Part shown: positions 1 through 11,147 of the stretch, piece after piece | How positions within the stretch are numbered: the stretch's first letter is position 1 | Layout of the letters: each line of letters begins with the position of its first letter | Source: a virus | Taxonomy: Duplodnaviria; Heunggongvirae; Uroviricota; Caudoviricetes | Direction: 5' to 3' (one strand) | Virus record (IMG/VR): IMGVR_UViG_2541047774_000004 | DNA length: 11,147 nucleotides | The notes under the pieces: generated by a model | Seen by the model: only the letters and a program-made list of their open reading frames with translations | Databases searched by the model: none | What the model was told of the DNA's origin: nothing | Translations under genes and position numbers: made by a program

Positions 1-996
1 GCACAGGAGAAATCCCTGCTGGCGCATAAAGATGAGACGCTGGAGTACAAACGCCAGCTGGCTGCACTTGGCGACAAGGTTACGTATCAGGAGCGCCTGA
101 ACGCGCTGGCGCAGCAGGCGGATAAGTTCGCACAGCAACAACGGGCAAAACGGGCAGCCATTGAGGCGAAAAACCGGGGGCTTACTGACCGGCAGGCAGC
201 GCGGGAAGCCACAGAACAGCGCCTGAAGGAACAGTATGGCGATAATTCGCTGGCGCTGAATAACGTCATGTCAGAGCAGAAAAAGACCTGGGCGGCTGAA
301 GACCAGCTTCGCGGGAGCTGGATGGCAGGCCTCAGGTCCGGCTGGAGTGAGTGGGAAGAGAGCGCCACGGACAGTATGTCGCAGGTTAAAAGTGCAGCCA
401 CGCAGACCTTTGATGGTATTGCGCAGAATATGGCGGCGATGCTGACCGGCAGTGAGCAGAACTGGCGCAGCTTCACCCGTTCCGTGCTGTCCATGATGAC
501 AGAAATTCTGCTTAAGCAGGCAATGGTGGGGATTGTCGGGAGTATCGGTAGCGCCATTGGCGGGGCTGTTGGTGGCGGCGCATCCGCGTCAGGCGGTACA
601 GCCATTCAGGCCGCTGCGGCGAAATTCCATTTTGCAACCGGAGGATTTACGGGAACCGGCGGCAAATATGAGCCAGCGGGGATTGTTCACCGTGGTGAAT
701 TTGTCTTCACGAAGGAGGCAACCAGCCGGATTGGTGTCGGCAACCTGTACCGCCTGATGCGGGGCTATGCGGAAGGTGGTTATGTGGGCGGTGCCGGAAG
801 TCCGGCGCAGATGCGGCGGGCTGAAGGCATTAATTTTAATCAGAACAATCACGTGGTGATTCAGAACGACGGTACGAATGGTCTGCCAGGTCCACAGATG
901 ATGAAGGCAGTGTATGACATGGCCCGCAAGGGTGCCCGTGATGAAATTCAGACACAGATGCGTGATGGTGGCCTGTTCTCCGGAGGTGGACGATGA
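1..996 (+). CDS. H: Tail tape measure protein, C-terminal portion (5'-partial; ORF open from base 1 in frame 1)
   Basis: Frame 1 is open from position 1 to TGA at 994-996; the ORF-track Met at 268 is internal. Gly-rich C-terminus (GSIGSAIGGAVGGGASASGGT...GLFSGGGR) and position immediately upstream of M with ATGA overlap match lambda gpH. Identity is by recalled similarity and synteny. Confidence 0.88.
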   Translation, partial: AQEKSLLAHKDETLEYKRQLAALGDKVTYQERLNALAQQADKFAQQQRAKRAAIEAKNRGLTDRQAAREATEQRLKEQYGDNSLALNNVMSEQKKTWAAEDQLRGSWMAGLRSGWSEWEESATDSMSQVKSAATQTFDGIAQNMAAMLTGSEQNWRSFTRSVLSMMTEILLKQAMVGIVGSIGSAIGGAVGGGASASGGTAIQAAAAKFHFATGGFTGTGGKYEPAGIVHRGEFVFTKEATSRIGVGNLYRLMRGYAEGGYVGGAGSPAQMRRAEGINFNQNNHVVIQNDGTNGLPGPQMMKAVYDMARKGARDEIQTQMRDGGLFSGGGR

Positions 997-1322
997 AAAC
1001 CTTCCGCTGGAAAGTGAAACCCGGTATGGATGTGGCTTCGGCCCCTTCCGTCAGGAAAGTGCGCTTTGGTGATGGCTATTCCCAGCGAGCGCCTGCCGGG
1101 CTGAATGCCGACCTGAAAACGTACAGCGTGACGCTTTCTGTTCCCCGTTGGGAGGCCACGGCGCTGGAGTCGTTTCTGGCTGAGCACGGGGGCTGGAAAG
1201 CCTTTCTGTGGACGCCGCCTTATGAGTGGCGGCAGATAAAGGTGACCTGCGCAAAATGGTCGTCGCGGGTCAGTATGCTGCGTGTTGAGTTCAGCGCAGA
1301 GTTTGAACAGGTGGTGAACTGA
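993..1322 (+). CDS. M: Minor tail protein M (tail tip assembly), 109 aa
   Basis: 109-aa ORF MKTFRWKVKPGMDVASAP..., same length as lambda gpM; ATG at 993 overlaps H stop (ATGA); stop overlaps L start (TGATG), indicating translational coupling. Confidence 0.93.
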   Translation: MKTFRWKVKPGMDVASAPSVRKVRFGDGYSQRAPAGLNADLKTYSVTLSVPRWEATALESFLAEHGGWKAFLWTPPYEWRQIKVTCAKWSSRVSMLRVEFSAEFEQVVN

Positions 1323-2020
1323 TGCAGGATATCCGGCAGGAAACACTGAATGAATGCACCCGTGCGGAGCAGTCGGCCAGCGTGGTGCTCTGGGAAATCG
1401 ACCTGACAGAGGTCGGTGGAGAACGTTATTTTTTCTGTAATGAGCTGAACGAAAAAGGTGAGCCGGTCACCTGGCAGGGGCGACAGTATCAGCCGTATCC
1501 CATTCAGGGGAGCGGTTTTGAACTGAATGGCAAAGGCACCAGTACGCGCCCCACGCTGACGGTTTCTAACCTGTACGGTATGGTCACCGGGATGGCGGAA
1601 GATCTGCAGAGTCTGGTCGGCGGAACGGTGGTCAGGCGTAAGGTTTACGCCCGTTTTCTGGATGCGGTGAACTTCGTCAACGGAAACAGTTACGCCGATC
1701 CGGAGCAGGAGGTGATCAGCCGCTGGCGCATTGAGCAGTGCAGCGAACTGAGCGCGGTGAGTGCCTCCTTTGTACTGTCCACGCCGACGGAAACGGATGG
1801 CGCTGTTTTTCCGGGACGTATCATGCTGGCCAACACCTGCACCTGGACCTATCGCGGTGACGAGTGCGGTTATAGCGGTCCGGCTGTCGCGGATGAATAT
1901 GACCAGCCGACGTCCGATATCACGAAGGATAAATGCAGCAAATGCCTGAGTGGCTGTAAGTTCCGCAATAACGTCGGCAACTTTGGCGGCTTCCTTTCCA
2001 TTAACAAACTTTCGCAGTAA
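1322..2020 (+). CDS. L: Minor tail protein L (tail tip complex), 232 aa
   Basis: 232-aa ORF MQDIRQETLNECTRAEQSASVVLWEIDLTEVGGERYFFCNEL..., same length and N-terminus as lambda gpL; C-terminal cysteine cluster CTWTYRGDECGYSG...DKCSKCLSGC. Confidence 0.93.
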   Translation: MQDIRQETLNECTRAEQSASVVLWEIDLTEVGGERYFFCNELNEKGEPVTWQGRQYQPYPIQGSGFELNGKGTSTRPTLTVSNLYGMVTGMAEDLQSLVGGTVVRRKVYARFLDAVNFVNGNSYADPEQEVISRWRIEQCSELSAVSASFVLSTPTETDGAVFPGRIMLANTCTWTYRGDECGYSGPAVADEYDQPTSDITKDKCSKCLSGCKFRNNVGNFGGFLSINKLSQ

Positions 2021-2024
2021 TCCC

Positions 2025-2768
2025 ATGACAGAGACAGAATCAGCGATTCTGGCGCACGCCCGGCGATGTGCGCCAGCGGAGTCGTGCGGCTTCGTGGTGA
2101 GAACGCCGGAGGGGGAAAGATATTTTCCCTGCGTGAATATTTCCGGTGAGCCGGAGGATTATTTCCGGATGGCTCCGGAGGACTGGCTGCAGGCAGAAAT
2201 GCAGGGTGAGATTGTGGCGCTGGTCCACAGCCACCCCGGTGGTCTGCCCTGGCTGAGTGAGGCTGACCGGCGGCTGCAGGTGCAGAGTGATTTGCCGTGG
2301 TTGCTGGTCTGCCGGGGGGCGATTCATAAGTTCCGCTGTGTGCCGCATCTCACCGGGCGGCGCTTTGAGCACGGGGTGACGGACTGTTACACGCTGTTCC
2401 GGGATGCTTATCATCTGGCGGGGATTGAGATGCCGGATTTTCATCGCGGGGATGACTGGTGGCGTCACGGTCAGAATCTCTATCTGGATAATCTGGAGGC
2501 CACAGGGCTGTATCAGGTGCCGTTGTCATCAGCACAACCGGGCGATGTGCTGCTGTGCTGTTTTGGTTCATCGGTGCCGAATCATGCCGCCATTTACTGT
2601 GGTGACGGCGAGCTGCTGCACCATATTCCTGAACAACTGAGCAAACGAGAGAGGTATACCGACAAATGGCAGCGACGCACACACTCCCTCTGGCGTCACC
2701 GGGCATGGCGCGCATCTGCCTTTACGGGGATTTACAACGATTTGGCCGCCGCATCGACCTTCGTGTGA
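2025..2768 (+). CDS. K: Tail tip assembly protein K (JAMM/MPN-like plus NlpC/P60-like domains), 247 aa from ATG 2025; alternative start ATG 2169 gives 199 aa
   Basis: ORF in frame 3; first ATG after the L stop is at 2025 (MTETESAILAHARRC...). Contains HSHPGGLPWLSEAD (H-x-H-x7-S-x2-D JAMM-type motif) and later GVTDCYTLF ... NHAAIY (Cys/His as in NlpC/P60 peptidases). The 1950 start in the ORF track overlaps L by 71 nt and is unlikely. ATG 2169 has the better Shine-Dalgarno (GGAGG at 2153-2157). Confidence 0.82.
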   Translation: MTETESAILAHARRCAPAESCGFVVRTPEGERYFPCVNISGEPEDYFRMAPEDWLQAEMQGEIVALVHSHPGGLPWLSEADRRLQVQSDLPWLLVCRGAIHKFRCVPHLTGRRFEHGVTDCYTLFRDAYHLAGIEMPDFHRGDDWWRHGQNLYLDNLEATGLYQVPLSSAQPGDVLLCCFGSSVPNHAAIYCGDGELLHHIPEQLSKRERYTDKWQRRTHSLWRHRAWRASAFTGIYNDLAAASTFV

Positions 2769-3337
2769 AAACGGGGGCTGAAGCCATTCGGGCGCTGGCC
2801 ACACAGCTCCCGGCGTTTCGTCAGAAACTGAGCGACGGCTGGTATCAGGTACGGATTTCCGGGCGGGACGTCAGCACGTCCGGATTGACGGCGCAGTTAC
2901 ATGAGGTTCTGCCTGACGGCGCTGTGATTCATATTGTTCCCAGAGTCGCCGGGGCCAAGTCAGGGGGCGTATTCCAGATTGTTCTGGGGGCTGCCGCCAT
3001 TGCCGGATCATTCTTTACTGCCGGAGCCACCCTTGCAGCATGGGGGGCAGCCATTGGGGCCGGTGGTATGACCGGTATCCTGTTTTCTCTCGGTGCCAGT
3101 ATGGTACTTGGTGGTGTGGCGCAGATGCTGGCACCGAAAGCCAGAACTCCCCGTACACAGACAACGGATAACGGTAAGCAGAACACCTATTTCTCCTCAC
3201 TGGATAACATGGTTGCCCAGGGCAATGTTCTGCCTGTTCTGTACGGTGAAATGCGCGTGGGGTCGCGGGTGGCTTCTCAGGAGATCAGCACGGCAGACGA
3301 GGGGGACGGTGGTCAGGTTGTGGTGATTGGTCGTTGA
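2666..3337 (+). CDS. I: Tail tip assembly protein I, 223 aa
   Basis: 223-aa ORF MAATHTLPLASPGMARICLYGDLQRFGRRIDL..., same length as lambda gpI; starts inside the 3' end of K in another frame (103-nt overlap) as in lambda; Gly/Ala-rich hydrophobic C-terminal half; purine-rich GAGAGAGG upstream. Confidence 0.9.
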   Translation: MAATHTLPLASPGMARICLYGDLQRFGRRIDLRVKTGAEAIRALATQLPAFRQKLSDGWYQVRISGRDVSTSGLTAQLHEVLPDGAVIHIVPRVAGAKSGGVFQIVLGAAAIAGSFFTAGATLAAWGAAIGAGGMTGILFSLGASMVLGGVAQMLAPKARTPRTQTTDNGKQNTYFSSLDNMVAQGNVLPVLYGEMRVGSRVASQEISTADEGDGGQVVVIGR

Positions 3338-3355
3338 TGAAAAACGTTTTATGTG

Positions 3356-3382
3356 AAACCGCCTCAGGGCGGTTTTGTCGTT
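3356..3382 (+). terminator. Stem-loop with T-rich tail in the I-J intergenic gap (possible weak terminator/attenuator or RNA processing site)
   Basis: AAACCGCC (3356-3363), loop TCAG, GGCGGTTT (3368-3375): perfect 8-bp inverted repeat followed by TGTCGTTTC. Confidence 0.35.
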
Positions 3383-3397
3383 TCTGGAGCGTGAGGA

Positions 3398-6300
3398 ATG
3401 GGTAAAGGCAGCAGTAAGGGGCATACCCCGCGCGAAGCGAAGGACAACCTGAAATCATCCCAGATGCTGAGCGTGATAGACGCCATCAGTGAAGGGCCGA
3501 TTGAAGGTCCGGTGGACGGATTAAAAAGTGTGCTGCTGAACAGTACGCCAGTGCTGGACAGTGAGGGGAATACCAATATCTCCGGTGTCACGGTGGTTTT
3601 CCGGGCAGGTGAGCAGGAGCAGACACCGCCGGAGGGATTTGAATCCTCCGGCTCCGAGACGGTGCTGGGTACGGAAGTGAAGTACGACACGCCGATTACC
3701 CGGACCATCACGTCTGCAAACATCGACCGTCTGCGCTTTACCTTCGGTGTGCAGGCACTGGTGGAAACCACCTCAAAGGGGGACCGGAATCCGTCGGAAG
3801 TCCGCCTGCTGGTTCAGATACAGCGTAACGGTGGCTGGGTGACGGAAAAAGACATCACCATTAAAGGCAAAACCACCTCGCAGTATCTGGCATCGGTGGT
3901 GGTGGGTAACCTGCCGCCGCGCCCGTTCAATATCCGGATGCGCAGGATGACGCCGGACAGCACCACAGACCAGCTGCAGAACAAAACGCTCTGGTCGTCA
4001 TACACCGAAATCATCGATGTGAAACAGTGCTACCCGAACACGGCACTGGTCGGCGTACAGGTGGATTCGGAGCAGTTCGGCAGCCAGCAGGTGAGCCGTA
4101 ATTATCATCTGCGCGGGCGTATTCTGCAGGTGCCGTCGAACTATAACCCGCAGACGCGGCAATACAGCGGTATCTGGGACGGAACGTTTAAGCCAGCATA
4201 CAGCAATAACATGGCCTGGTGTCTGTGGGATATGCTGACCCATCCACGCTACGGCATGGGGAAACGTCTTGGTGCGGCGGATGTGGACAAATGGGCGCTG
4301 TATGTCATCGGCCAGTACTGCGACCAGTCAGTGCCGGACGGCTTTGGCAGCACGGAGCCGCGCATCACCTGTAATGCCTGGCTGACCACACAGCGAAAGG
4401 CGTGGGATGTGCTCAGTGATTTCTGCTCGGCGATGCGCTGTATGCCGGTATGGAACGGGCAGACGCTGACGTTCGTGCAGGACCGACCGTCGGATAAGGT
4501 GTGGACCTATAACCGCAGTAATGTGGTGATGCCGGATGATGGCGCGCCGTTCCGCTACAGCTTCAGCGCCCTGAAAGACCGCCATAATGCCGTTGAGGTG
4601 AACTGGATTGACCCGAACAACGGCTGGGAGACGGCGACAGAGCTTGTGGAGGATACGCAGGCCATTGCCCGTTACGGTCGTAACGTCACGAAGATGGATG
4701 CCTTTGGCTGTACCAGCCGGGGGCAGGCACACCGCGCCGGGCTGTGGCTGATTAAAACGGAACTGCTGGAGACGCAGACCGTGGATTTCAGCGTGGGCGC
4801 AGAAGGGCTTCGCCATGTGCCGGGCGATGTTATTGAAATCTGCGATGATGACTATGCGGGGATCAGCATCGGCGGGCGCGTGCTGGCTGTGAACAGCCAG
4901 ACCCGGACGCTGACGCTCGACCGTGAAATCACGCTGCCATCCTCCGGTACCACGCTGATAAGCCTGGTTGACGGAAGTGGCAATCCGGTCAGCGTGGAGG
5001 TCCAGTCCGTCACCGACGGCGTGAAGGTAAAAGTGAGCCGTGTTCCTGACGGCGTTGCCGGATACAGCGTATGGGGGCTGAAGCTGCCGACGCTGCGCCA
5101 GCGCCTGTTCCGCTGCGTGAGTATCCGTGAGAACGATGACGGCACGTATGCCATCACCGCCGTGCAGCATGTACCAGAAAAAGAGGCCATCGTGGATAAC
5201 GGGGCGCACTTTGACGGCGACCAGAGCGGCACGGTGAATGGTGTCACGCCGCCAGCAGTGCAGCACCTGACTGCCGAAGTCACCGCAGACAGCGGGGAAT
5301 ATCAGGTGCTGGCGCGCTGGGACACGCCGAAGGTGGTGAAGGGGGTGAGCTTTATGCTTCGCCTGACCGTGGCAGCGGATGACGGCAGTGAGCGGCTGGT
5401 CAGCACGGCCCGGACGGCGGAAACCACATACCGCTTCACGCAACTGGCGCTGGGGAACTACAGGCTGACAGTCCGGGCAGTAAATGCCCGGGGGCAGCAG
5501 GGAGACCCGGCGTCGGTATCGTTCCGGATTGCCGCCCCGGCAGCGCCGTCGCGGATTGAGCTGACACCGGGCTATTTTCAGATAACCGCCACGCCGCATC
5601 TTGCGGTTTATGACCCGACGGTACAGTTTGAGTTCTGGTTCTCGGAAAAACGGATTGCTGATATCAGGCAGGTTGAAACCACAGCCCGCTATCTTGGCAC
5701 GGCGCTGTACTGGATAGCTGCCAGTATCAATATCAAACCGGGCCATGATTATTACTTTTATATCCGCAGTGTGAACACCGTTGGCAAATCGGCATTCGTG
5801 GAGGCCGTCGGTCGGGCGAGCGATGATGCGGAAGGTTACCTGGATTTTTTCAAAGGCCAGATAACCGAATCCCATCTCGGTAAAGAGCTGCTGGAAAAAG
5901 TTGATTTGACGGAGGATAACGCCAGCAGACTGGATGAGTTTTCGAAAGAGTGGAAGGACGCTAACGATAAATGGAATGCCATGTGGGGCGTCAAAATTGA
6001 GCAGACCAAAGACGGCAAACATTATGTCGCGGGTATTGGCCTCAGCATGGAGGACACGGAGGAAGGCAAGCTGAGCCAGTTTCTGGTTGCCGCTAACCGT
6101 ATCGCGTTTATTGACCCGGCAAACGGGAATGAAACGCCGATGTTTGTGGCGCAGGGCAACCAGATATTCATGAACGACGTGTTCCTGAAACGCCTGACGG
6201 CCCCCACCATTACCAGCGGTGGCAGTCCTCCGGTATTTTCCCTGACATCAGACGGAAAGCTGACCGCTAAAAATGCGGATATCAGTGGTAGTGTGAATGC

Positions 6301-6811
6301 GAACTCAGGAACGCTCAACAATGTCACGATTAACCAGAACTGTACGATTAAGGGCATGCTGGAGGCGACTCAGGTCAGAGGTGACTTCGTTAAAGCTGTA
6401 TCCAAATCATTTCCGAAACAGGCTGGTACGTGGGGTAACACGGAAACACCAAACGGGACGGTTACAGTCACCATCAGCGATGATCATAACTTTGACCGTC
6501 AAATCATTATTCCGCCCATTATCTTTAACGGAATAGCGTATAGCGATCCGGGAAGTGGTAATAACCCGGGAGGTACAAGATACACGGGTTATGGTTTTGA
6601 AGTTCGCAAAAACGGTGTATTAATCGCATCCAGAGAAACTAAAGGGGCCATTCCCGGTAGCTACAGTGCGGTTATTGATATGCCGAGTGGCAGGGGAAGC
6701 GTCACTCTGGAGTTTAAGGTTTTCCATAAAGGCAATCAGTGGGCAGGTAATATCACCGACTGTACGGTGATTGTGACCAAAAAAGCCGCTTCCGGCATCA
6801 GTATTCGTTGA
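3398..6811 (+). CDS. J: Central tail fibre / host specificity protein J, 1137 aa
   Basis: 1137-aa [57 protein letters not shown]..., recalled as near-identical to lambda gpJ (1132 aa) over most of its length; GAGG immediately upstream of the ATG; follows I after a 60-nt gap. Confidence 0.95.
6320..6808 (+). other. Divergent, lower-GC C-terminal (receptor-binding) segment of J
   Basis: Base composition drops sharply (one 60-nt line at 6481-6540 counts 22 G+C, versus 39 G+C for 5401-5460). The protein departs from the recalled lambda gpJ C-terminus after about ...[15 protein letters not shown], while keeping the ...VIVTKKA.SGIS.. ending pattern. Confidence 0.5.
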
Positions 6812-6832
6812 AATTGTTATAACCCATATAAG

Positions 6833-6856
6833 GGCACCAGAAATGGTGCCTTTTTT
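6833..6856 (+). terminator. Rho-independent terminator-like hairpin between J and lom
   Basis: GGCACCA (6833-6839), loop GAAA, TGGTGCC (6844-6850) followed by TTTTTT (6851-6856); 22 nt after the J stop. Confidence 0.6.
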
Positions 6857-6880
6857 ATTGCAGAAAAGCGAGAGGTAATT

Positions 6881-7480
6881 ATGCGTAAATTATGTGCTGT
6901 TATTCTGTCTGCAGTAGTCTGGCTGGTCGCCGCTGGTACGCCAGCGAGTGCAGCAGAGCATCAGTCCACACTAAGCGGCGGGTATCTTCAGTCCCATACT
7001 GATATGCCCGGCAACGATGACCTGAAGGGCATTAACGTGAAATACCGTTATGAGTTTACGGACACGCTGGGGATGGTGACGTCATTCAGCTATGCAGAAG
7101 ACAAGAATCGCCAGCTGACTCATTACAGCGATACCCGCTGGCATGAAGATTCCGTGCGTAACCGCTGGTTCAGCGTGATGGCGGGGCCGTCTGTGCGCGT
7201 GAATGAATGGTTCAGCGCGTATGCGATGGCGGGTGTGGCTTACAGCCGTATTTCGACTTTCTCCGGGGATTATCTCCGCGTAACTGACAACAAGGGGAAA
7301 ACGCACGACGTGCTGACCGGAAGTGATGACGGTCGCCGCAGCAACACGTCTCTGGCGTGGGGGGCTGGCGTGCAGTTTAACCCGACCGAATCCGTGGCCA
7401 TTGATATTGCTTATGAAGGCTCCGGCAGTGGCGACTGGCGCACTGACGGTTTCATCGTGGGTGTCGGTTATAAATTCTGA
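6881..7480 (+). CDS. lom: Lom outer membrane protein (Ail/Lom/PagC-family beta-barrel), 199 aa; lysogenic-conversion moron
   Basis: 199-aa ORF with N-terminal signal peptide MRKLCAVILSAVVWLVAAGTPASA followed by AEHQ (A-x-A cleavage site), alternating aromatic/hydrophobic beta-strand pattern and C-terminal ...GVGYKF; GAGAGG 6 nt upstream of ATG; same position as lambda lom between J and stf. Confidence 0.9.
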   Translation: MRKLCAVILSAVVWLVAAGTPASAAEHQSTLSGGYLQSHTDMPGNDDLKGINVKYRYEFTDTLGMVTSFSYAEDKNRQLTHYSDTRWHEDSVRNRWFSVMAGPSVRVNEWFSAYAMAGVAYSRISTFSGDYLRVTDNKGKTHDVLTGSDDGRRSNTSLAWGAGVQFNPTESVAIDIAYEGSGSGDWRTDGFIVGVGYKF

Positions 7481-7506
7481 TTAGCCAGGTAACACAGTGT
7501 TATGAC

Positions 7507-7533
7507 AGCCCGCCGGTTCAGGCGGGCTTTTTT
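7507..7533 (+). terminator. Rho-independent terminator downstream of lom
   Basis: AGCCCGCC (7507-7514), loop GGTTCA, GGCGGGCT (7521-7528) followed by a T-run through 7533; 27 nt after the lom stop. Confidence 0.65.
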
Positions 7534-7544
7534 GTGGGGTGAAT

Positions 7545-10500
7545 ATGGCAGTAAAGATTTCAGGTGTACTGAAAGACGGTGCAGGTAAACCGGTACAGAA
7601 CTGCACAATCCAGCTGAAAGCAAAACGTAACAGCACCACGGTGGTGGTGAACACGGTGGCATCTGAAAATCCGGATGAAGCCGGGCGTTACAGCATGGAC
7701 GTTGAGTACGGTCAGTACCGCGTTATTCTGTTGGTGGAAGGATTCCCGCCGTCACATGCCGGGACCATCACCGTGTATGAAGATTCTCAACCCGGTACGC
7801 TGAATGATTTTCTCGGTGCCATGACGGAGGATGATGCCCGTCCGGAGGCACTGCGCCGTTTTGAACTGATGGTGGAAGAGGTGGCGCGTAACGCGTCCGC
7901 AGTGGCACAGAACACGGCAGCCGCAAAGAAGTCAGCCAGCGATGCCGGCACATCTGCCCGTGAGGCGGCAACCCATGCAACCGATGCTGCAGGCTCAGCA
8001 CGTGCCGCCAGCACGTCAGCCGGACAGGCTGCATCATCTGCTCAGTCAGCATCTTCCAGCGCAGGAACGGCATCAACAAAGGCCACTGAAGCATTAAAAA
8101 GTGCTGCCGCTGCAGAGTCCTCAAAAAGCGCGGCAGCCACCAGTGCCGGTGCGGCGAAAACGTCAGAAACGAATGCCGCAGCATCACAACTATCAGCAGC
8201 CACTTCTGCATCCACCGCGACCACGAAGGCGTCAGAAGCTGCCACCTCAGCCCGGGATGCGGCGGCCTCAAAAGAGGCAGCGAAATCATCAGAAACGAAC
8301 GCATCATCAAGTGCCAGTAGTGCAGCTTCCTCGGCAACGGCGGCAGGAAATTCCGCGAAGGCCGCAAAAACGTCTGAGACGAATGCGGATAACAGCGCAC
8401 AGGCGGCAGCAGACTCACAAACTGCATCGGCAAACTCCGCGACAGCAGCCAAAAAATCAGAAACCAACGCGAAAAATAGCGAGGCAGCAGCAAAGAGCAG
8501 CGAAACAAACGCTAAAGCCAGCGAAACTAATGCTAAATCCAGTGAAACAAACGCGGCGAAATCTGCGGCGGACGCACTTAATTATTGCAACCAGGCGCAA
8601 GTAATTGTTGGCGATAATATCGGTCTTGGCTCAGCCCCGCGTGATTGTCCTGATATTTCCGGCAACCCATCAGGGTATATCGGATTTATGCGCATTATGA
8701 GTAATGCAAAAGGCTTTCCATCGATTGCATCCGGTGAAAGCAGTCTTACGGGGTTTATTAGTCAGGTAGATGGAACACCAGCGTATACAGGTGTATTTCA
8801 GGGATGGGCTACGCGCTCGCTTTATACTTATCGCTGGAATCCGACAACAGGCCCGCAATGGACACGCCACGCTCGCAAAAATGAAGTGGACCGTCTTGAC
8901 CAATGGAATAGCGAAACATGGTTATATAACCATGATAAATCCATGCGCCTGGGTTTAACCGGATCAACATGGGGGTGTTACAGCGACACACAAAAAAAAT
9001 GGATACCGCTTGATGTTTCTCATGGTGGCACTGGCGCAAATAGCCTTGATGACGCCAAAACTAATTTGCAAATCCCTGAGGGTGGATTAACAAAAGCGAT
9101 GACCCTTAATGCCCCTGGTGGTGCAGTGGATGGCAAATACTACCCTGTCATAATAGACACATCTGCAATGAATGGGAGCGGTGCCATGTTATGTCCTGTT
9201 GAAATAAAAACAGCAGGAGGTCCGGCATCAAATCCGCTTAATAGTAACTCATTTTTTGGGTTCATTCGATGTGGTGGCTGGAGTGACGTTCGCGATGTGG
9301 CTTACGGGTCATTTGTTTGCTATGAAAAAAATGAACTCGGGATACTTTGCATTAAAGCGTCGCAAAGAGATTATGCGCAGCATGTAGCTTTCTACATCCA
9401 TAAAAGCGCTTTTCCTGTCGTTGTGCAAACTGGCTACAAGGCGAAAGTTAAGGTTCCAACAGAAGACTACGTAATTGGTGACAACGGGGTTAGATATAAG
9501 TTTGGTGTATCAACGTCAACGGAGGATAACGACAAGAACTTTGTTAAAAATGTTCTTGACTTCACTGGCGGTGAACATGGCTTCTACAGCAACCTTCCGT
9601 TCAGACAAGGGGTGTCAGAAAGGATTGCATTAACAAATGGCCTGAGTTTTGACAAAAATTTTACCGTCACTATTCCTATATTTGTAAACAATGGTCAGAT
9701 TAAAGCAACACAATCTTTCACCGCGTACGGTACAGACGCTTCAAACAGAACATTTGTTTCTCAAAGATTACAATCCGAAGGAGGTCCGGTTGTCGATCAA
9801 ACTGAACTAAGGGCCGCTAACGCTTCTGGTGAAATTATTGTCAGGGACATAAATAATTCAGGGAACAGTAAGTTCTTTAATTTTAACCTTGATGGTACCT
9901 TCAGTTCTTACCAGGGATTGGTTGTTCACACAGGGCAAAACTGGAGCACTCAACATACAGATAATGTAAATAAGTTTAAGCCAATAGCAGGGAGCGCAGG
10001 CGGTCCTGACGGAACAATGGTTGTTGGCGGATTCCATGCTCAATTTAGCGGTAATTACGTCACACAATTCGCCGGTCGCAACTCCAAATTTTGGGCAAGA
10101 AGCTTTGAGGCTGGGGTTGATAAGGGATGGAAACGACTATTAACAGTAGACGATCTCAATTCATCTACCGATCTTGCTGTCAGGTCATTAACCACATCTA
10201 ACCCGGTAAAATCTGGCGGAGGGCGAATTGATGTCCTTGGAAGCACGTCAGACTATAGCAAAATGGATTGCTTTGTACGTGGGTTTGATAGCACCGGTAA
10301 TTCTCTCGCGTGGGCGTTGGGTTCATCAGTCGGCGTAAGTAAGATGCTGTCGCTAAAAAATTTCTTTAGCGGAGCTGAGATACTGTTAAATGGTAATGAC
10401 GGCGCGGTTCAACTCAAAACAGGTGCTGTTAACGGGGCTAAAGCGCAGGCGCTCACTATCAACAAGGATGAGGTTAATTCAACTGTTGATTTAACTCTTA

Positions 10501-11147
10501 CAAAACAAACAGGGACTGGCAATCGTTTTGTTTTACAGAACTTAGGTAATACAGAACTATCATTTGCCGCAAAAGTATGGGGATCAAGTGATCGACAAAA
10601 CGTTTTTGAGGTTGGAACGTCTGCTGCGTATCTGTTTTATGCGCAAAAAACGTCAGCAGGCCAGTTGTTTGATGTAAATGGCGCTATTAATTGCACAACG
10701 CTGAATCAGTCATCAGACCGCGACCTTAAAGACGATATTCTCGTTATCAGCGACGCGACGAAAGCAATCCGTAAAATGAACGGATACACCTACACGCTCA
10801 GGGAAAACGGGATGCCTTATGCTGGCGTTATTGCACAGGAAGTAATGGAGGCGATACCAGAAGCTGTGGGATCGTTTACTCATTACGGTGAAGAGTTGCA
10901 GGGACCAACGGTTGACGGCAATGAATTACGTGAAGAAACACGTTATCTGAATGTTGACTACGCCGCCGTGACGGGGTTACTTGTTCAGGTCGCCCGTGAA
11001 ACAGATGGTCGCGTTACCGCGCTGGAAGAGGAAAACATAACGCTACGTAAAAATCTGGCAACAGCAGGCACCCGGATCAGCACTCTGGAAAATCAGGTAA
11101 GCGAACTGGTTGCACTTGTCGGGCAGTTAACAGGAAGCGAACATTGA
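7545..11147 (+). CDS. stf: Side tail fibre protein (Stf-like): lambda-Stf-like N-terminus, Ala/Ser-rich repetitive shaft, divergent distal region, C-terminal intramolecular chaperone domain; about 1200 aa
   Basis: Continuous ORF to TGA at 11145-11147. N-terminus MAVKISGVLKDGAGKPVQNCTIQLKAKRNSTTVVVNTV...GQYRVILLVEGFPPSHAGTITVYEDSQPGTLNDFL matches the recalled lambda Stf N-terminus, followed by SETNA-containing Ala/Ser-rich repeats. The ORF track starts at GTG 7539 (MNM...); ATG 7545 (MAVKISG) is preferred by analogy to lambda Stf. Confidence 0.9.
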   Translation: MAVKISGVLKDGAGKPVQNCTIQLKAKRNSTTVVVNTVASENPDEAGRYSMDVEYGQYRVILLVEGFPPSHAGTITVYEDSQPGTLNDFLGAMTEDDARPEALRRFELMVEEVARNASAVAQNTAAAKKSASDAGTSAREAATHATDAAGSARAASTSAGQAASSAQSASSSAGTASTKATEALKSAAAAESSKSAAATSAGAAKTSETNAAASQLSAATSASTATTKASEAATSARDAAASKEAAKSSETNASSSASSAASSATAAGNSAKAAKTSETNADNSAQAAADSQTASANSATAAKKSETNAKNSEAAAKSSETNAKASETNAKSSETNAAKSAADALNYCNQAQVIVGDNIGLGSAPRDCPDISGNPSGYIGFMRIMSNAKGFPSIASGESSLTGFISQVDGTPAYTGVFQGWATRSLYTYRWNPTTGPQWTRHARKNEVDRLDQWNSETWLYNHDKSMRLGLTGSTWGCYSDTQKKWIPLDVSHGGTGANSLDDAKTNLQIPEGGLTKAMTLNAPGGAVDGKYYPVIIDTSAMNGSGAMLCPVEIKTAGGPASNPLNSNSFFGFIRCGGWSDVRDVAYGSFVCYEKNELGILCIKASQRDYAQHVAFYIHKSAFPVVVQTGYKAKVKVPTEDYVIGDNGVRYKFGVSTSTEDNDKNFVKNVLDFTGGEHGFYSNLPFRQGVSERIALTNGLSFDKNFTVTIPIFVNNGQIKATQSFTAYGTDASNRTFVSQRLQSEGGPVVDQTELRAANASGEIIVRDINNSGNSKFFNFNLDGTFSSYQGLVVHTGQNWSTQHTDNVNKFKPIAGSAGGPDGTMVVGGFHAQFSGNYVTQFAGRNSKFWARSFEAGVDKGWKRLLTVDDLNSSTDLAVRSLTTSNPVKSGGGRIDVLGSTSDYSKMDCFVRGFDSTGNSLAWALGSSVGVSKMLSLKNFFSGAEILLNGNDGAVQLKTGAVNGAKAQALTINKDEVNSTVDLTLTKQTGTGNRFVLQNLGNTELSFAAKVWGSSDRQNVFEVGTSAAYLFYAQKTSAGQLFDVNGAINCTTLNQSSDRDLKDDILVISDATKAIRKMNGYTYTLRENGMPYAGVIAQEVMEAIPEAVGSFTHYGEELQGPTVDGNELREETRYLNVDYAAVTGLLVQVARETDGRVTALEEENITLRKNLATAGTRISTLENQVSELVALVGQLTGSEH
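8150..8565 (+). repeat. In-frame degenerate peptide repeats (K-[ST]-SETNA...) in the Stf shaft, ending in three tandem 21-nt units
   Basis: Protein motifs AKTSETNAAASQ, AKSSETNASSSA, AKTSETNADNSA, KKSETNAKNSE, then tandem SETNAKA-SETNAKS-SETNAAK encoded at about 8497-8565 (agcgaaacaaacgctaaagcc / agcgaaactaatgctaaatcc / agtgaaacaaacgcggcgaaa). Confidence 0.6.
10713..11144 (+). other. C-terminal intramolecular chaperone / autoproteolytic domain of Stf (peptidase S74-like, as in endosialidase and T5 L-shaped fibre)
   Basis: Motif NQSSDRDLKDDILVISDATKAIRKMNGYTYTL with Ser (codon 10713-10715) and Lys (codon 10728-10730) spaced S-x4-K, followed by a heptad-like C-terminal helix ...TALEEENITLRKNLATAGTRISTLENQVSELVALVGQL at the protein end. 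Confidence 0.6.

Follow-up and report, generated by a model that had tools for sequence, protein, structure and literature searches.

The C-terminal ~170 residues of J in lambda-family phages form an exchangeable host-range cassette, and the phage 434 allele of this cassette has been used for decades in lambda h434 hybrids. When lambda J is replaced by the J of 434, the receptor is reported to change from LamB to OmpC, which 434 itself also uses (PMC3509688, PMC11101478). Structural work on lambda indicates that the trimeric receptor-binding domain (RBD) places four distal loops into the porin trimer, and that the spreading of the RBD passes up the straight fiber and opens the tail (PMC11101478). 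Maddamsetti et al. (2018, PMC6646904) described residues 960 to 1132 as a "specificity region" that recombines independently of the rest of J, and Brodel et al. (2024, PMC11338833) fused natural OmpC-binding J ends to lambda gpJ at residue 964. A boundary at about residue 964 is also reported for the J protein of Gifsy-1 from Salmonella (PMC12312913). An exchangeable J end of the 434 type is, then, already known in the literature (PMC6646904, PMC11338833). Here, we compare with these systems the J gene of a lambda-like tail region and the sequences that flank its receptor-binding end.

A lambda-like tail gene region with an intact J gene

The window analyzed here is the whole 11,147-nucleotide stretch of DNA taken from a Caudoviricetes virus (IMG/VR record IMGVR_UViG_2541047774_000004). 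On its plus strand it contains the 3′ end of H, followed by M, L, K, I, J, lom, and a complete stf. The order of these open reading frames (ORFs) agrees with the annotations of lambda, 434, and mEp460, and the series H-M-L-K-I-J-lom-stf is that of a lambda-like tail region. Positions 1 to 6367 are colinear with lambda 12108 to 18474 at 95.0% identity (blastn). Across the whole window, the closest matches (98.5% identity over 100% of the length) are to prophages in the chromosomes of bovine E. coli, with strains CE0026f and N61 among them, and the nearest isolated phage is mEp460 (96.0% over 1319 to 11147). An Rfam scan of the window returned no matches, and no short or antisense ORFs of note besides J and lom were detected across 6250 to 6900.

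Gene J, which encodes the tip attachment protein or central tail fiber, occupies 3398 to 6811 on the plus strand; according to the ORF list and its translation, it is an intact reading frame of 1137 aa. Pfam domains were detected along its length in the order FNIII-A_GpJ (aa 86 to 207), Phage-tail_3 (330 to 496), Ig_J (610 to 714), Ig_J_second (716 to 818), Phage_Tail_Tip (846 to 972), and Ig_GpJ_C (1001 to 1136). All of these scored well over their cutoffs, and the series follows the lambda order and ends in Ig_GpJ_C, as in J proteins of the lambda family.

The backbone of the protein (3398 to 6330, plus strand), comprising the hub, the FNIII and Ig domains, the helical shaft, and the straight fiber, is lambda-like, with a nucleotide mismatch to lambda of 4.9%. 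The first-pass annotation had called roughly the first 970 residues lambda-identical; conservation of the backbone is clear, but it amounts to ~95% nucleotide and ~97% amino acid identity before the breakpoint rather than to identity. Relative to 434, the backbone has a dN/dS ratio of 0.04 to 0.07. Over its full length, J is 97.7% identical in nucleotide sequence to the J of Perceval and 95.4% identical to that of 434, and the corresponding amino acid identities are 1119/1137 and 1112/1137. The J of the laboratory hybrid lambda h434 imm21 (PMC9119081) is 95.3% identical to window J over the full length; OM418627 is one example of the classical lambda h434 host-range hybrids.

One segment of the backbone is of interest in its own right. 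Residues 902 to 933 of J (window 6101 to 6196) align without differences to the corresponding lambda J peptide and retain Q922 and F924. The equivalent lambda peptide is reported to activate the prophage-encoded abortive-infection nuclease HepS, for which Q922 and F924 are the key residues (PMC13043305). A phage carrying window J would be predicted to trigger HepS.

Breakpoint in the comparison with lambda gpJ

We aligned J with lambda gpJ and scored identity along its length. Between 37 and 40 residues were identical in each 40-aa bin through aa 960, after which the count fell to 29/40 at aa 961 to 1000 and then to 19/40, 9/40, 12/40, and 9/23 toward the C terminus. Nucleotide identity in 100-nt bins followed the same course, with values of 0.89 to 0.99 up to position 6297, 0.68 at 6298 to 6397, and 0.43 to 0.60 beyond. 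A maximum chi-square scan placed the breakpoint at nt 6331 (aa ~978; chi-square = 882), where the mismatch frequency rises from 4.9% to 50.9%. Given this position and this contrast, the earlier proposal that J diverges from 6320 onward, over its last ~160 aa, was accurate. The C-terminal end lacks the high identity of the backbone in this alignment, with bins falling to 9/40.

The last long run of identity with lambda before the divergence, and the final one of at least 20 nt, is a 38-nt stretch at 6251 to 6288 on the plus strand (aa 952 to 964). It coincides with residue 964 of lambda gpJ, the "insertion point" for gpJ chimeras (PMC11338833), and with residue 960, at which the published specificity region begins (PMC6646904). 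This run is the probable crossover substrate at the module boundary.

A 434-type receptor-binding domain at the end of J

The sequence downstream of the breakpoint (6331 to 6808, plus strand; aa ~978 to 1137) holds a 434-type specificity region, or RBD, whose Ig_GpJ_C core spans aa 1001 to 1136 (nt 6398 to 6805). Ig_GpJ_C is Pfam family PF12421, [quoted passage not shown] and its match to this core has an E value of 9.1e-26 and a score of 91 bits against a cutoff of 26.2. The last 177 aa of J align to those of lambda (blastp, E = 3e-43), and the J end matches the solved lambda RBD structures 8XCJ and 8XCK along the entire length (8xcj, E = 5e-49). Because the protein alignment, the Pfam score, and the PDB sequence match agree, we take the divergent J end to be a homolog of the lambda RBD and not an unrelated domain; its fold family is settled by the Pfam and PDB matches.

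Window and lambda J both carry Ig_GpJ_C at the tip of the same fiber, and the framework motifs DDHxFDRQI, (V/I)DMPxGRG, and KKxAxGIS are common to the two. After aa 1000, 49 of the 143 aligned columns are identical, or about one third, and the alignment contains five indels. High identity to gpJ ~978 to 1132, by which lambda's own LamB-type module would be recognized, was not observed (50.9% nucleotide mismatch past 6331). The indels relative to lambda are +2, +6, +1, +2, and −6 aa, at or near lambda residues 1011/1012, ~1051, 1078, ~1100, and 1108, respectively. A survey of 1207 natural J homologs identified specificity and indel hot spots at residues 1012, 1048-1049, 1077-1078, and 1107 (Maddamsetti et al. 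2018, PMC6646904), and the window indels at 1011/1012, ~1051, 1078, and 1108 lie at or beside these hot spots.

The same end of J is closely similar to that of 434. Over aa 976 to 1137, 155 of 162 residues are identical, the two sequences are of equal length, and there are no indels between them, the relationship expected of the h434 module; nucleotide identity to 434 in the C-terminal module is 0.87 to 1.00 per 100-nt bin. The substitutions, with the window residue given first, are S1004A, Q1008K, A1009V, N1019D, S1049D, R1099G, and W1115R. At 1008, 1019, 1049, and 1115, mEp460 differs from the window as well, and these four together with 1009 fall within about 5 residues of the published hot spots. 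A single-sequence AlphaFold2 model of aa 935 to 1137 (pLDDT 45.5, pTM 0.38) was too poor for assigning these residues to loops. No amino acid differences from Perceval or Stx2c were found over aa 976 to 1137, and the RBD is 100% identical to that of Perceval at the nucleotide level from 6398 onward. Judged by these alignments, the C-terminal ~160 codons of J are the phage 434 ("h434") allele of the specificity module.

The RBD has a dS of 0.28 relative to 434, and its dN/dS ratio within the 434 family is 0.08 to 0.19, indicating purifying selection. Such values bear on the idea that J comes from a decaying prophage and that its unusual C terminus is no longer functional. This idea draws on the fact that the closest whole-window matches, at 98.5%, are chromosomal prophages of bovine E. 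coli. We consider it very improbable, however, given that none of the J, lom, and stf ORFs is truncated or interrupted and each encodes its full set of domains, that purifying selection is strong, and that the same alleles occur in the isolated plaque-forming phages 434, mEp460, Perceval, and the PhiR series (PMC9928086).

Recombination and the extent of the 434-type block

The divergent block does not end with J. No DNA match to lambda was detected from 6368 to 7352 except for a 57-bp island, and similarity resumes at 87% from 7353 to 8386; the block extends past the J stop codon, across the terminator, and into lom, most of which it covers, as far as nt ~7352. The 69-nt spacer between J and lom is identical to that of 434 and differs from that of lambda. 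A terminator-like hairpin after J (6830 to 6853, plus strand), found by a terminator scan, belongs to the 434-type block, and a terminator is annotated there in 434 and mEp460. The lom gene (6881 to 7480, plus strand) encodes an Ail/Lom outer-membrane protein of 199 aa (PF06316, E = 1e-122), which belongs to the 434 type when aligned with the Lom proteins of lambda, 434, and Perceval. Since spacer, terminator, and lom are all of the 434 type, the unit that is unlike lambda consists of the RBD, the terminator, and most of lom.

A finer feature was seen within lom. The window Lom protein departs from the Lom proteins of both 434 and Perceval in the signal peptide and the first mature segment, which suggests a further small mosaic patch.

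Comparison with other phages separated the history of the RBD from that of the rest of J. Relative to the window, the J of Stx2c_JNE110649 has a dS of 0.99 and a dN of 0.16 over the first 600 codons (aa 1 to 600), whereas dS is 0.027 over aa 976 to 1137. Identity in this phage switches at ~5192, from 57 to 83% upstream (dS about 1.0) to 93 to 100% downstream, which defines a third J junction. The J of cdtI has an internal cassette at window-equivalent positions 5792 to 6157 that is 84 nt longer and 37 to 67% identical, and its RBD is 99 to 100% identical to that of the window. The divergent 5792-to-6157 segment is also present in ev099, Ayreon, phi458, and others, and constitutes a second exchangeable cassette in J. 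Lambda shows the opposite pattern to Stx2c, with a backbone close to that of the window and a divergent RBD. Across the Stx2c dS contrast, cdtI, and lambda, the history of aa ~960 to 1132 is decoupled from that of the rest of J, as is characteristic of the specificity region.

On the basis of the Stx2c switch at ~5192, the cdtI cassette, and the reverse pattern in lambda, J is a mosaic in which no fewer than three junction zones can be distinguished, and its RBD module moves between backbones. We ascribe the RBD swap, whatever its direction and timing, to recombination because the same RBD (dS 0.027) is carried on a backbone with a dS of about 1.0 and because the J of cdtI is itself mosaic.

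Could the C-terminal divergence from lambda instead have arisen in place, through accelerated point mutation and diversifying selection and with no exchange of a cassette? The specificity region of J is a known hot spot of adaptive substitution, both in the laboratory and in nature (PMC6646904). Nevertheless, the mismatch frequency jumps from 4.9% to 50.9% at a single point, the noncoding spacer and lom are divergent as well, a near-identical RBD (dS 0.027) sits on a backbone with a dS of about 1.0, and cdtI pairs the window RBD with a different internal cassette. In light of these observations, divergence in place is hardly credible, and exchange of the RBD by recombination is the reading that we retain.

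Base composition of J

A fall in G+C content near 6300 had been put forward as a sign of the exchange. The counts on which the first-pass annotation relied are exact (22/60 at 6481 to 6540 and 39/60 at 5401 to 5460), but no significant breakpoint was found near 6300: the best break within 5600 to 6808 was at 6268, with a chi-square value of 3.0 that was reached by 382/500 shuffles. The single significant GC step in J lies at nt 5573, where GC falls from 0.600 to 0.495, and was matched by 0/500 codon shuffles. Located 750 nt upstream of the divergence point, this step falls in conserved backbone sequence and recurs in lambda at J nt 2176. Because the change-point test finds the step at 5573 and lambda shares it, the contrast between 39/60 and 22/60 is mostly a reflection of this shared step.

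The step at ~5573 (J nt ~2176) is common to lambda and 434 and is found approximately where the Ig/FNIII domains give way to the fiber. It is unrelated to the RBD exchange and may mark an ancient domain join.

The window RBD has a GC content of 0.473 and a GC3 of 0.481, compared with 0.510 and 0.599 in the preceding 242 codons (aa 734 to 975) and 0.548 and 0.618 in lambda's own RBD. The difference in composition between the window RBD and the upstream segment is modest (GC3 of 0.48 versus 0.60). In the codon-shuffle change-point test of J, no composition break coincided with the sequence break in the manner of a foreign insert. Low GC was rejected as support for the swap, the sole significant step, at 5573, being present in lambda as well.

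Independent reassortment of the side tail fiber

The stf gene (7539 to 11147, plus strand) encodes a side tail fiber of 1202 aa with a lambda-like N-terminal anchor and an mEp460-type distal part. In blastp comparisons, Stf is 99.1% identical to the Stf of mEp460 over 1202 aa, whereas the match to lambda orf-401 (86%) is confined to the first 284 aa. The matches to 434 (66% over 247 aa) and Perceval (61% over 231 aa) are N-terminal. Pfam detected phage_tail_N at aa 3 to 136 and Peptidase_S74, an intramolecular chaperone, at aa 1059 to 1110. Searched against solved structures, the distal region gave only a marginal match, to the tip of a T4-like long tail fiber (E = 2e-4).

Several local features of this gene and its borders were also recorded. 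Between lom and stf, a strong terminator-like hairpin at 7507 to 7528 has a stem of 8 pairs, of which 7 are G-C, and a T-run after it, at a place where a terminator is annotated in 434 and mEp460. A 21-bp tandem repeat in stf (8498 to 8554; 2.7 copies, 83% matches) lies just past the end of lambda similarity at ~8386. The stop codon of stf is the final triplet of the window. In the mEp460 annotation, stf is followed by a DinI-like gene that lies on the opposite strand, and no assembly gene resembling tfa separates the two.

The J end and the side fiber had been suggested to have been exchanged independently of one another, and the relatives support this suggestion. 434 and Perceval share the RBD and lom with the window but have different Stf distal parts, whereas mEp460 shares both the RBD and Stf; we conclude from this distribution that the J end and Stf have reassorted independently. 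The Stx2c phages share the RBD with the window but not the N-terminal two thirds of J.

Prevalence of the 434-type J end in E. coli

To describe how widespread the RBD cassette is, we counted matches to 6380 to 6811 at a threshold of at least 80% coverage. The cassette was detected in 2082 of 5426 complete E. coli genomes, at 2858 places, and its matches fall into identity bands that include 731 records at ≥99% and 989 at 90 to 95%. Lambda's own cassette was found in 97 of the 5426 genomes, with laboratory lysogens and BL21(DE3) among the matches listed. The conserved fiber segment at 5900 to 6290 is present at 7213 places, and relative to these, ~40% of lambda-like E. coli J genes carry a 434-type end and about 1.5% carry that of lambda. 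Of the J variants carried by E. coli prophages, the window-type end is the most frequent.

In the phage collection, 74 records contain the cassette, including 434, mEp460, cdtI, phage 2851, Stx1a and Stx2c phages, and the PhiR series. The RBD allele of the window is also found in Stx2c- and Stx1a-converting phages, cdtI, IdasGreatGrand, and PhiR49_1.

These counts change the sense in which the J end can be called swapped. The term, as used in the first-pass annotation, holds relative to lambda but not as the description of an oddity, the allele being about 20 times commoner than lambda's; with 2082 genomes on one side and 97 on the other, it depends on the choice of lambda as the reference. 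The LamB allele of lambda is the rare variant, present in about 2% of complete E. coli genomes versus 38%. For annotation purposes, OmpC should take the place of LamB as the tropism assigned to this phage or prophage, and its side fiber should be recorded as mEp460-type.

Predicted receptor and mechanism of attachment

A divergent RBD on a conserved backbone had been taken to predict a receptor other than LamB. Our analysis supports this prediction and specifies it, in that the module is of the 434 type and differs from 434 at 7/162 aa. By homology with 434 and with the lambda h434 hybrids, all of which use OmpC, the receptor of window J would most likely be OmpC and not LamB. No receptor reports for Perceval, the PhiR series, mEp460, or cdtI were found in the literature searched, and the paper on Perceval gives none (PMC9928086). 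Perceval forms infectious, plaque-forming virions, with plaques on the indicator strain MAC1403 (PMC9928086).

In the mechanism that we propose, the Ig-like RBD forms the distal tip of the central tail fiber, a trimer, and those of its loops that bear indels relative to lambda would dock on a trimeric outer-membrane porin. Binding to the porin would then lead to rearrangement of the fiber and opening of the tail, as described for lambda. The module joined the backbone by homologous recombination in the conserved fiber sequence just upstream, probably around aa 952 to 964, and the J terminator and lom move together with it as one unit. The mEp460-type distal part of the side fiber was reassorted separately. 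We hold it to be highly probable that the window encodes an intact J with a 434-type RBD acquired by recombination, for which we infer docking on OmpC and triggering through the fiber.

The fine specificity for OmpC could differ from that of 434, since seven substitutions separate the two RBDs and five of them lie beside hot spots. Natural J ends are known to differ in their choice of OmpC allele: 1A2 delivers to the OmpC of EDL933 but not to the OmpC of K-12 (PMC11338833). The window subtype (Q1008, A1009, N1019, S1049, W1115) is distinct from both the 434 and the mEp460 subtypes at 1008, 1019, 1049, and 1115, and position 1009 is a further difference from 434; E. coli prophages carry it by the hundreds, as do Perceval, cdtI, and Stx1/Stx2c phages. 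A reading in which this subtype has shifted its specificity, toward a restricted set of OmpC alleles or toward another porin, used beside OmpC or in its place, and gives a host range unlike that of 434, is in our estimation unlikely. Its basis is the seven RBD differences from 434, of which four positions differ also in mEp460 and five are near hot spots. The banding of cassette identities (731 records at ≥99% against 989 at 90 to 95%) would fit such a shift, as would the origin of the first 100% match and other matches at ≥99% in O157:H7 or other human clinical isolates. Experimental precedents also exist: A8 and 1A2 accept different OmpC alleles (PMC11338833), and a few point mutations in J add the use of OmpC or OmpF in phage 21 and lambda (PMC11336670, PMC6646904). 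In contrast, the dN/dS ratio of the RBD in the 434 family is low (0.08 to 0.19), Perceval, with an identical RBD, plaques on the laboratory strain MAC1403 (PMC9928086), and 434 is itself a laboratory K-12 phage. We regard it as similarly doubtful that RBD subtypes in general are tuned to different OmpC alleles or that one of them adds a second porin. If this were true, E. coli lineages would be divided among prophages by a series of naturally occurring alleles of a single J module. Attachment to OmpC in the manner of 434 remains our preferred reading.

Comparison with described J proteins

Gifsy-1 of Salmonella, a different host genus, has a J with a similar pattern. As in the window, its N-terminal ~964 aa are conserved with lambda and are followed by a divergent receptor domain. 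Its C terminus is far more divergent than that of the window, with 18% identity to lambda reported (PMC12312913), and the likeness is drawn from the published description. Gifsy-1 J binds OmpC irreversibly (PMC12312913).

A8 (PDB 9WCA) and 1A2 (PMC11338833) as fused to lambda gpJ resemble the window in joining a different Ig_GpJ_C domain to a lambda-like backbone that ends at about aa 964, and OmpC has been shown by experiment to be the receptor of both (PMC11338833). The J junction now serves to retarget lambda-derived delivery particles to OmpC. The window RBD was nevertheless found to be neither of these two ends: A8 (9wca) is a distinct type with many substitutions, and the printed 3′ end of 1A2 differs. 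A search of the supplementary sequences of that study for 15- to 21-nt strings of the window RBD gave no match (PMC11338833).

Perceval, a prophage of E. coli LF82 (OV696612), has the same RBD as the window and a different Stf distal part. The J of 434 (OL657226, CPT_434_21) is, like that of the window, 1137 aa long. Its Lom differs from that of the window in the N-terminal part, and its Stf, of 437 aa versus 1202 aa in the window, has an unrelated distal part. 434 and the window are colinear through the RBD, the spacer, the terminator, and lom to nt 7966, and the boundary of the 434 J module relative to lambda is that of the window.
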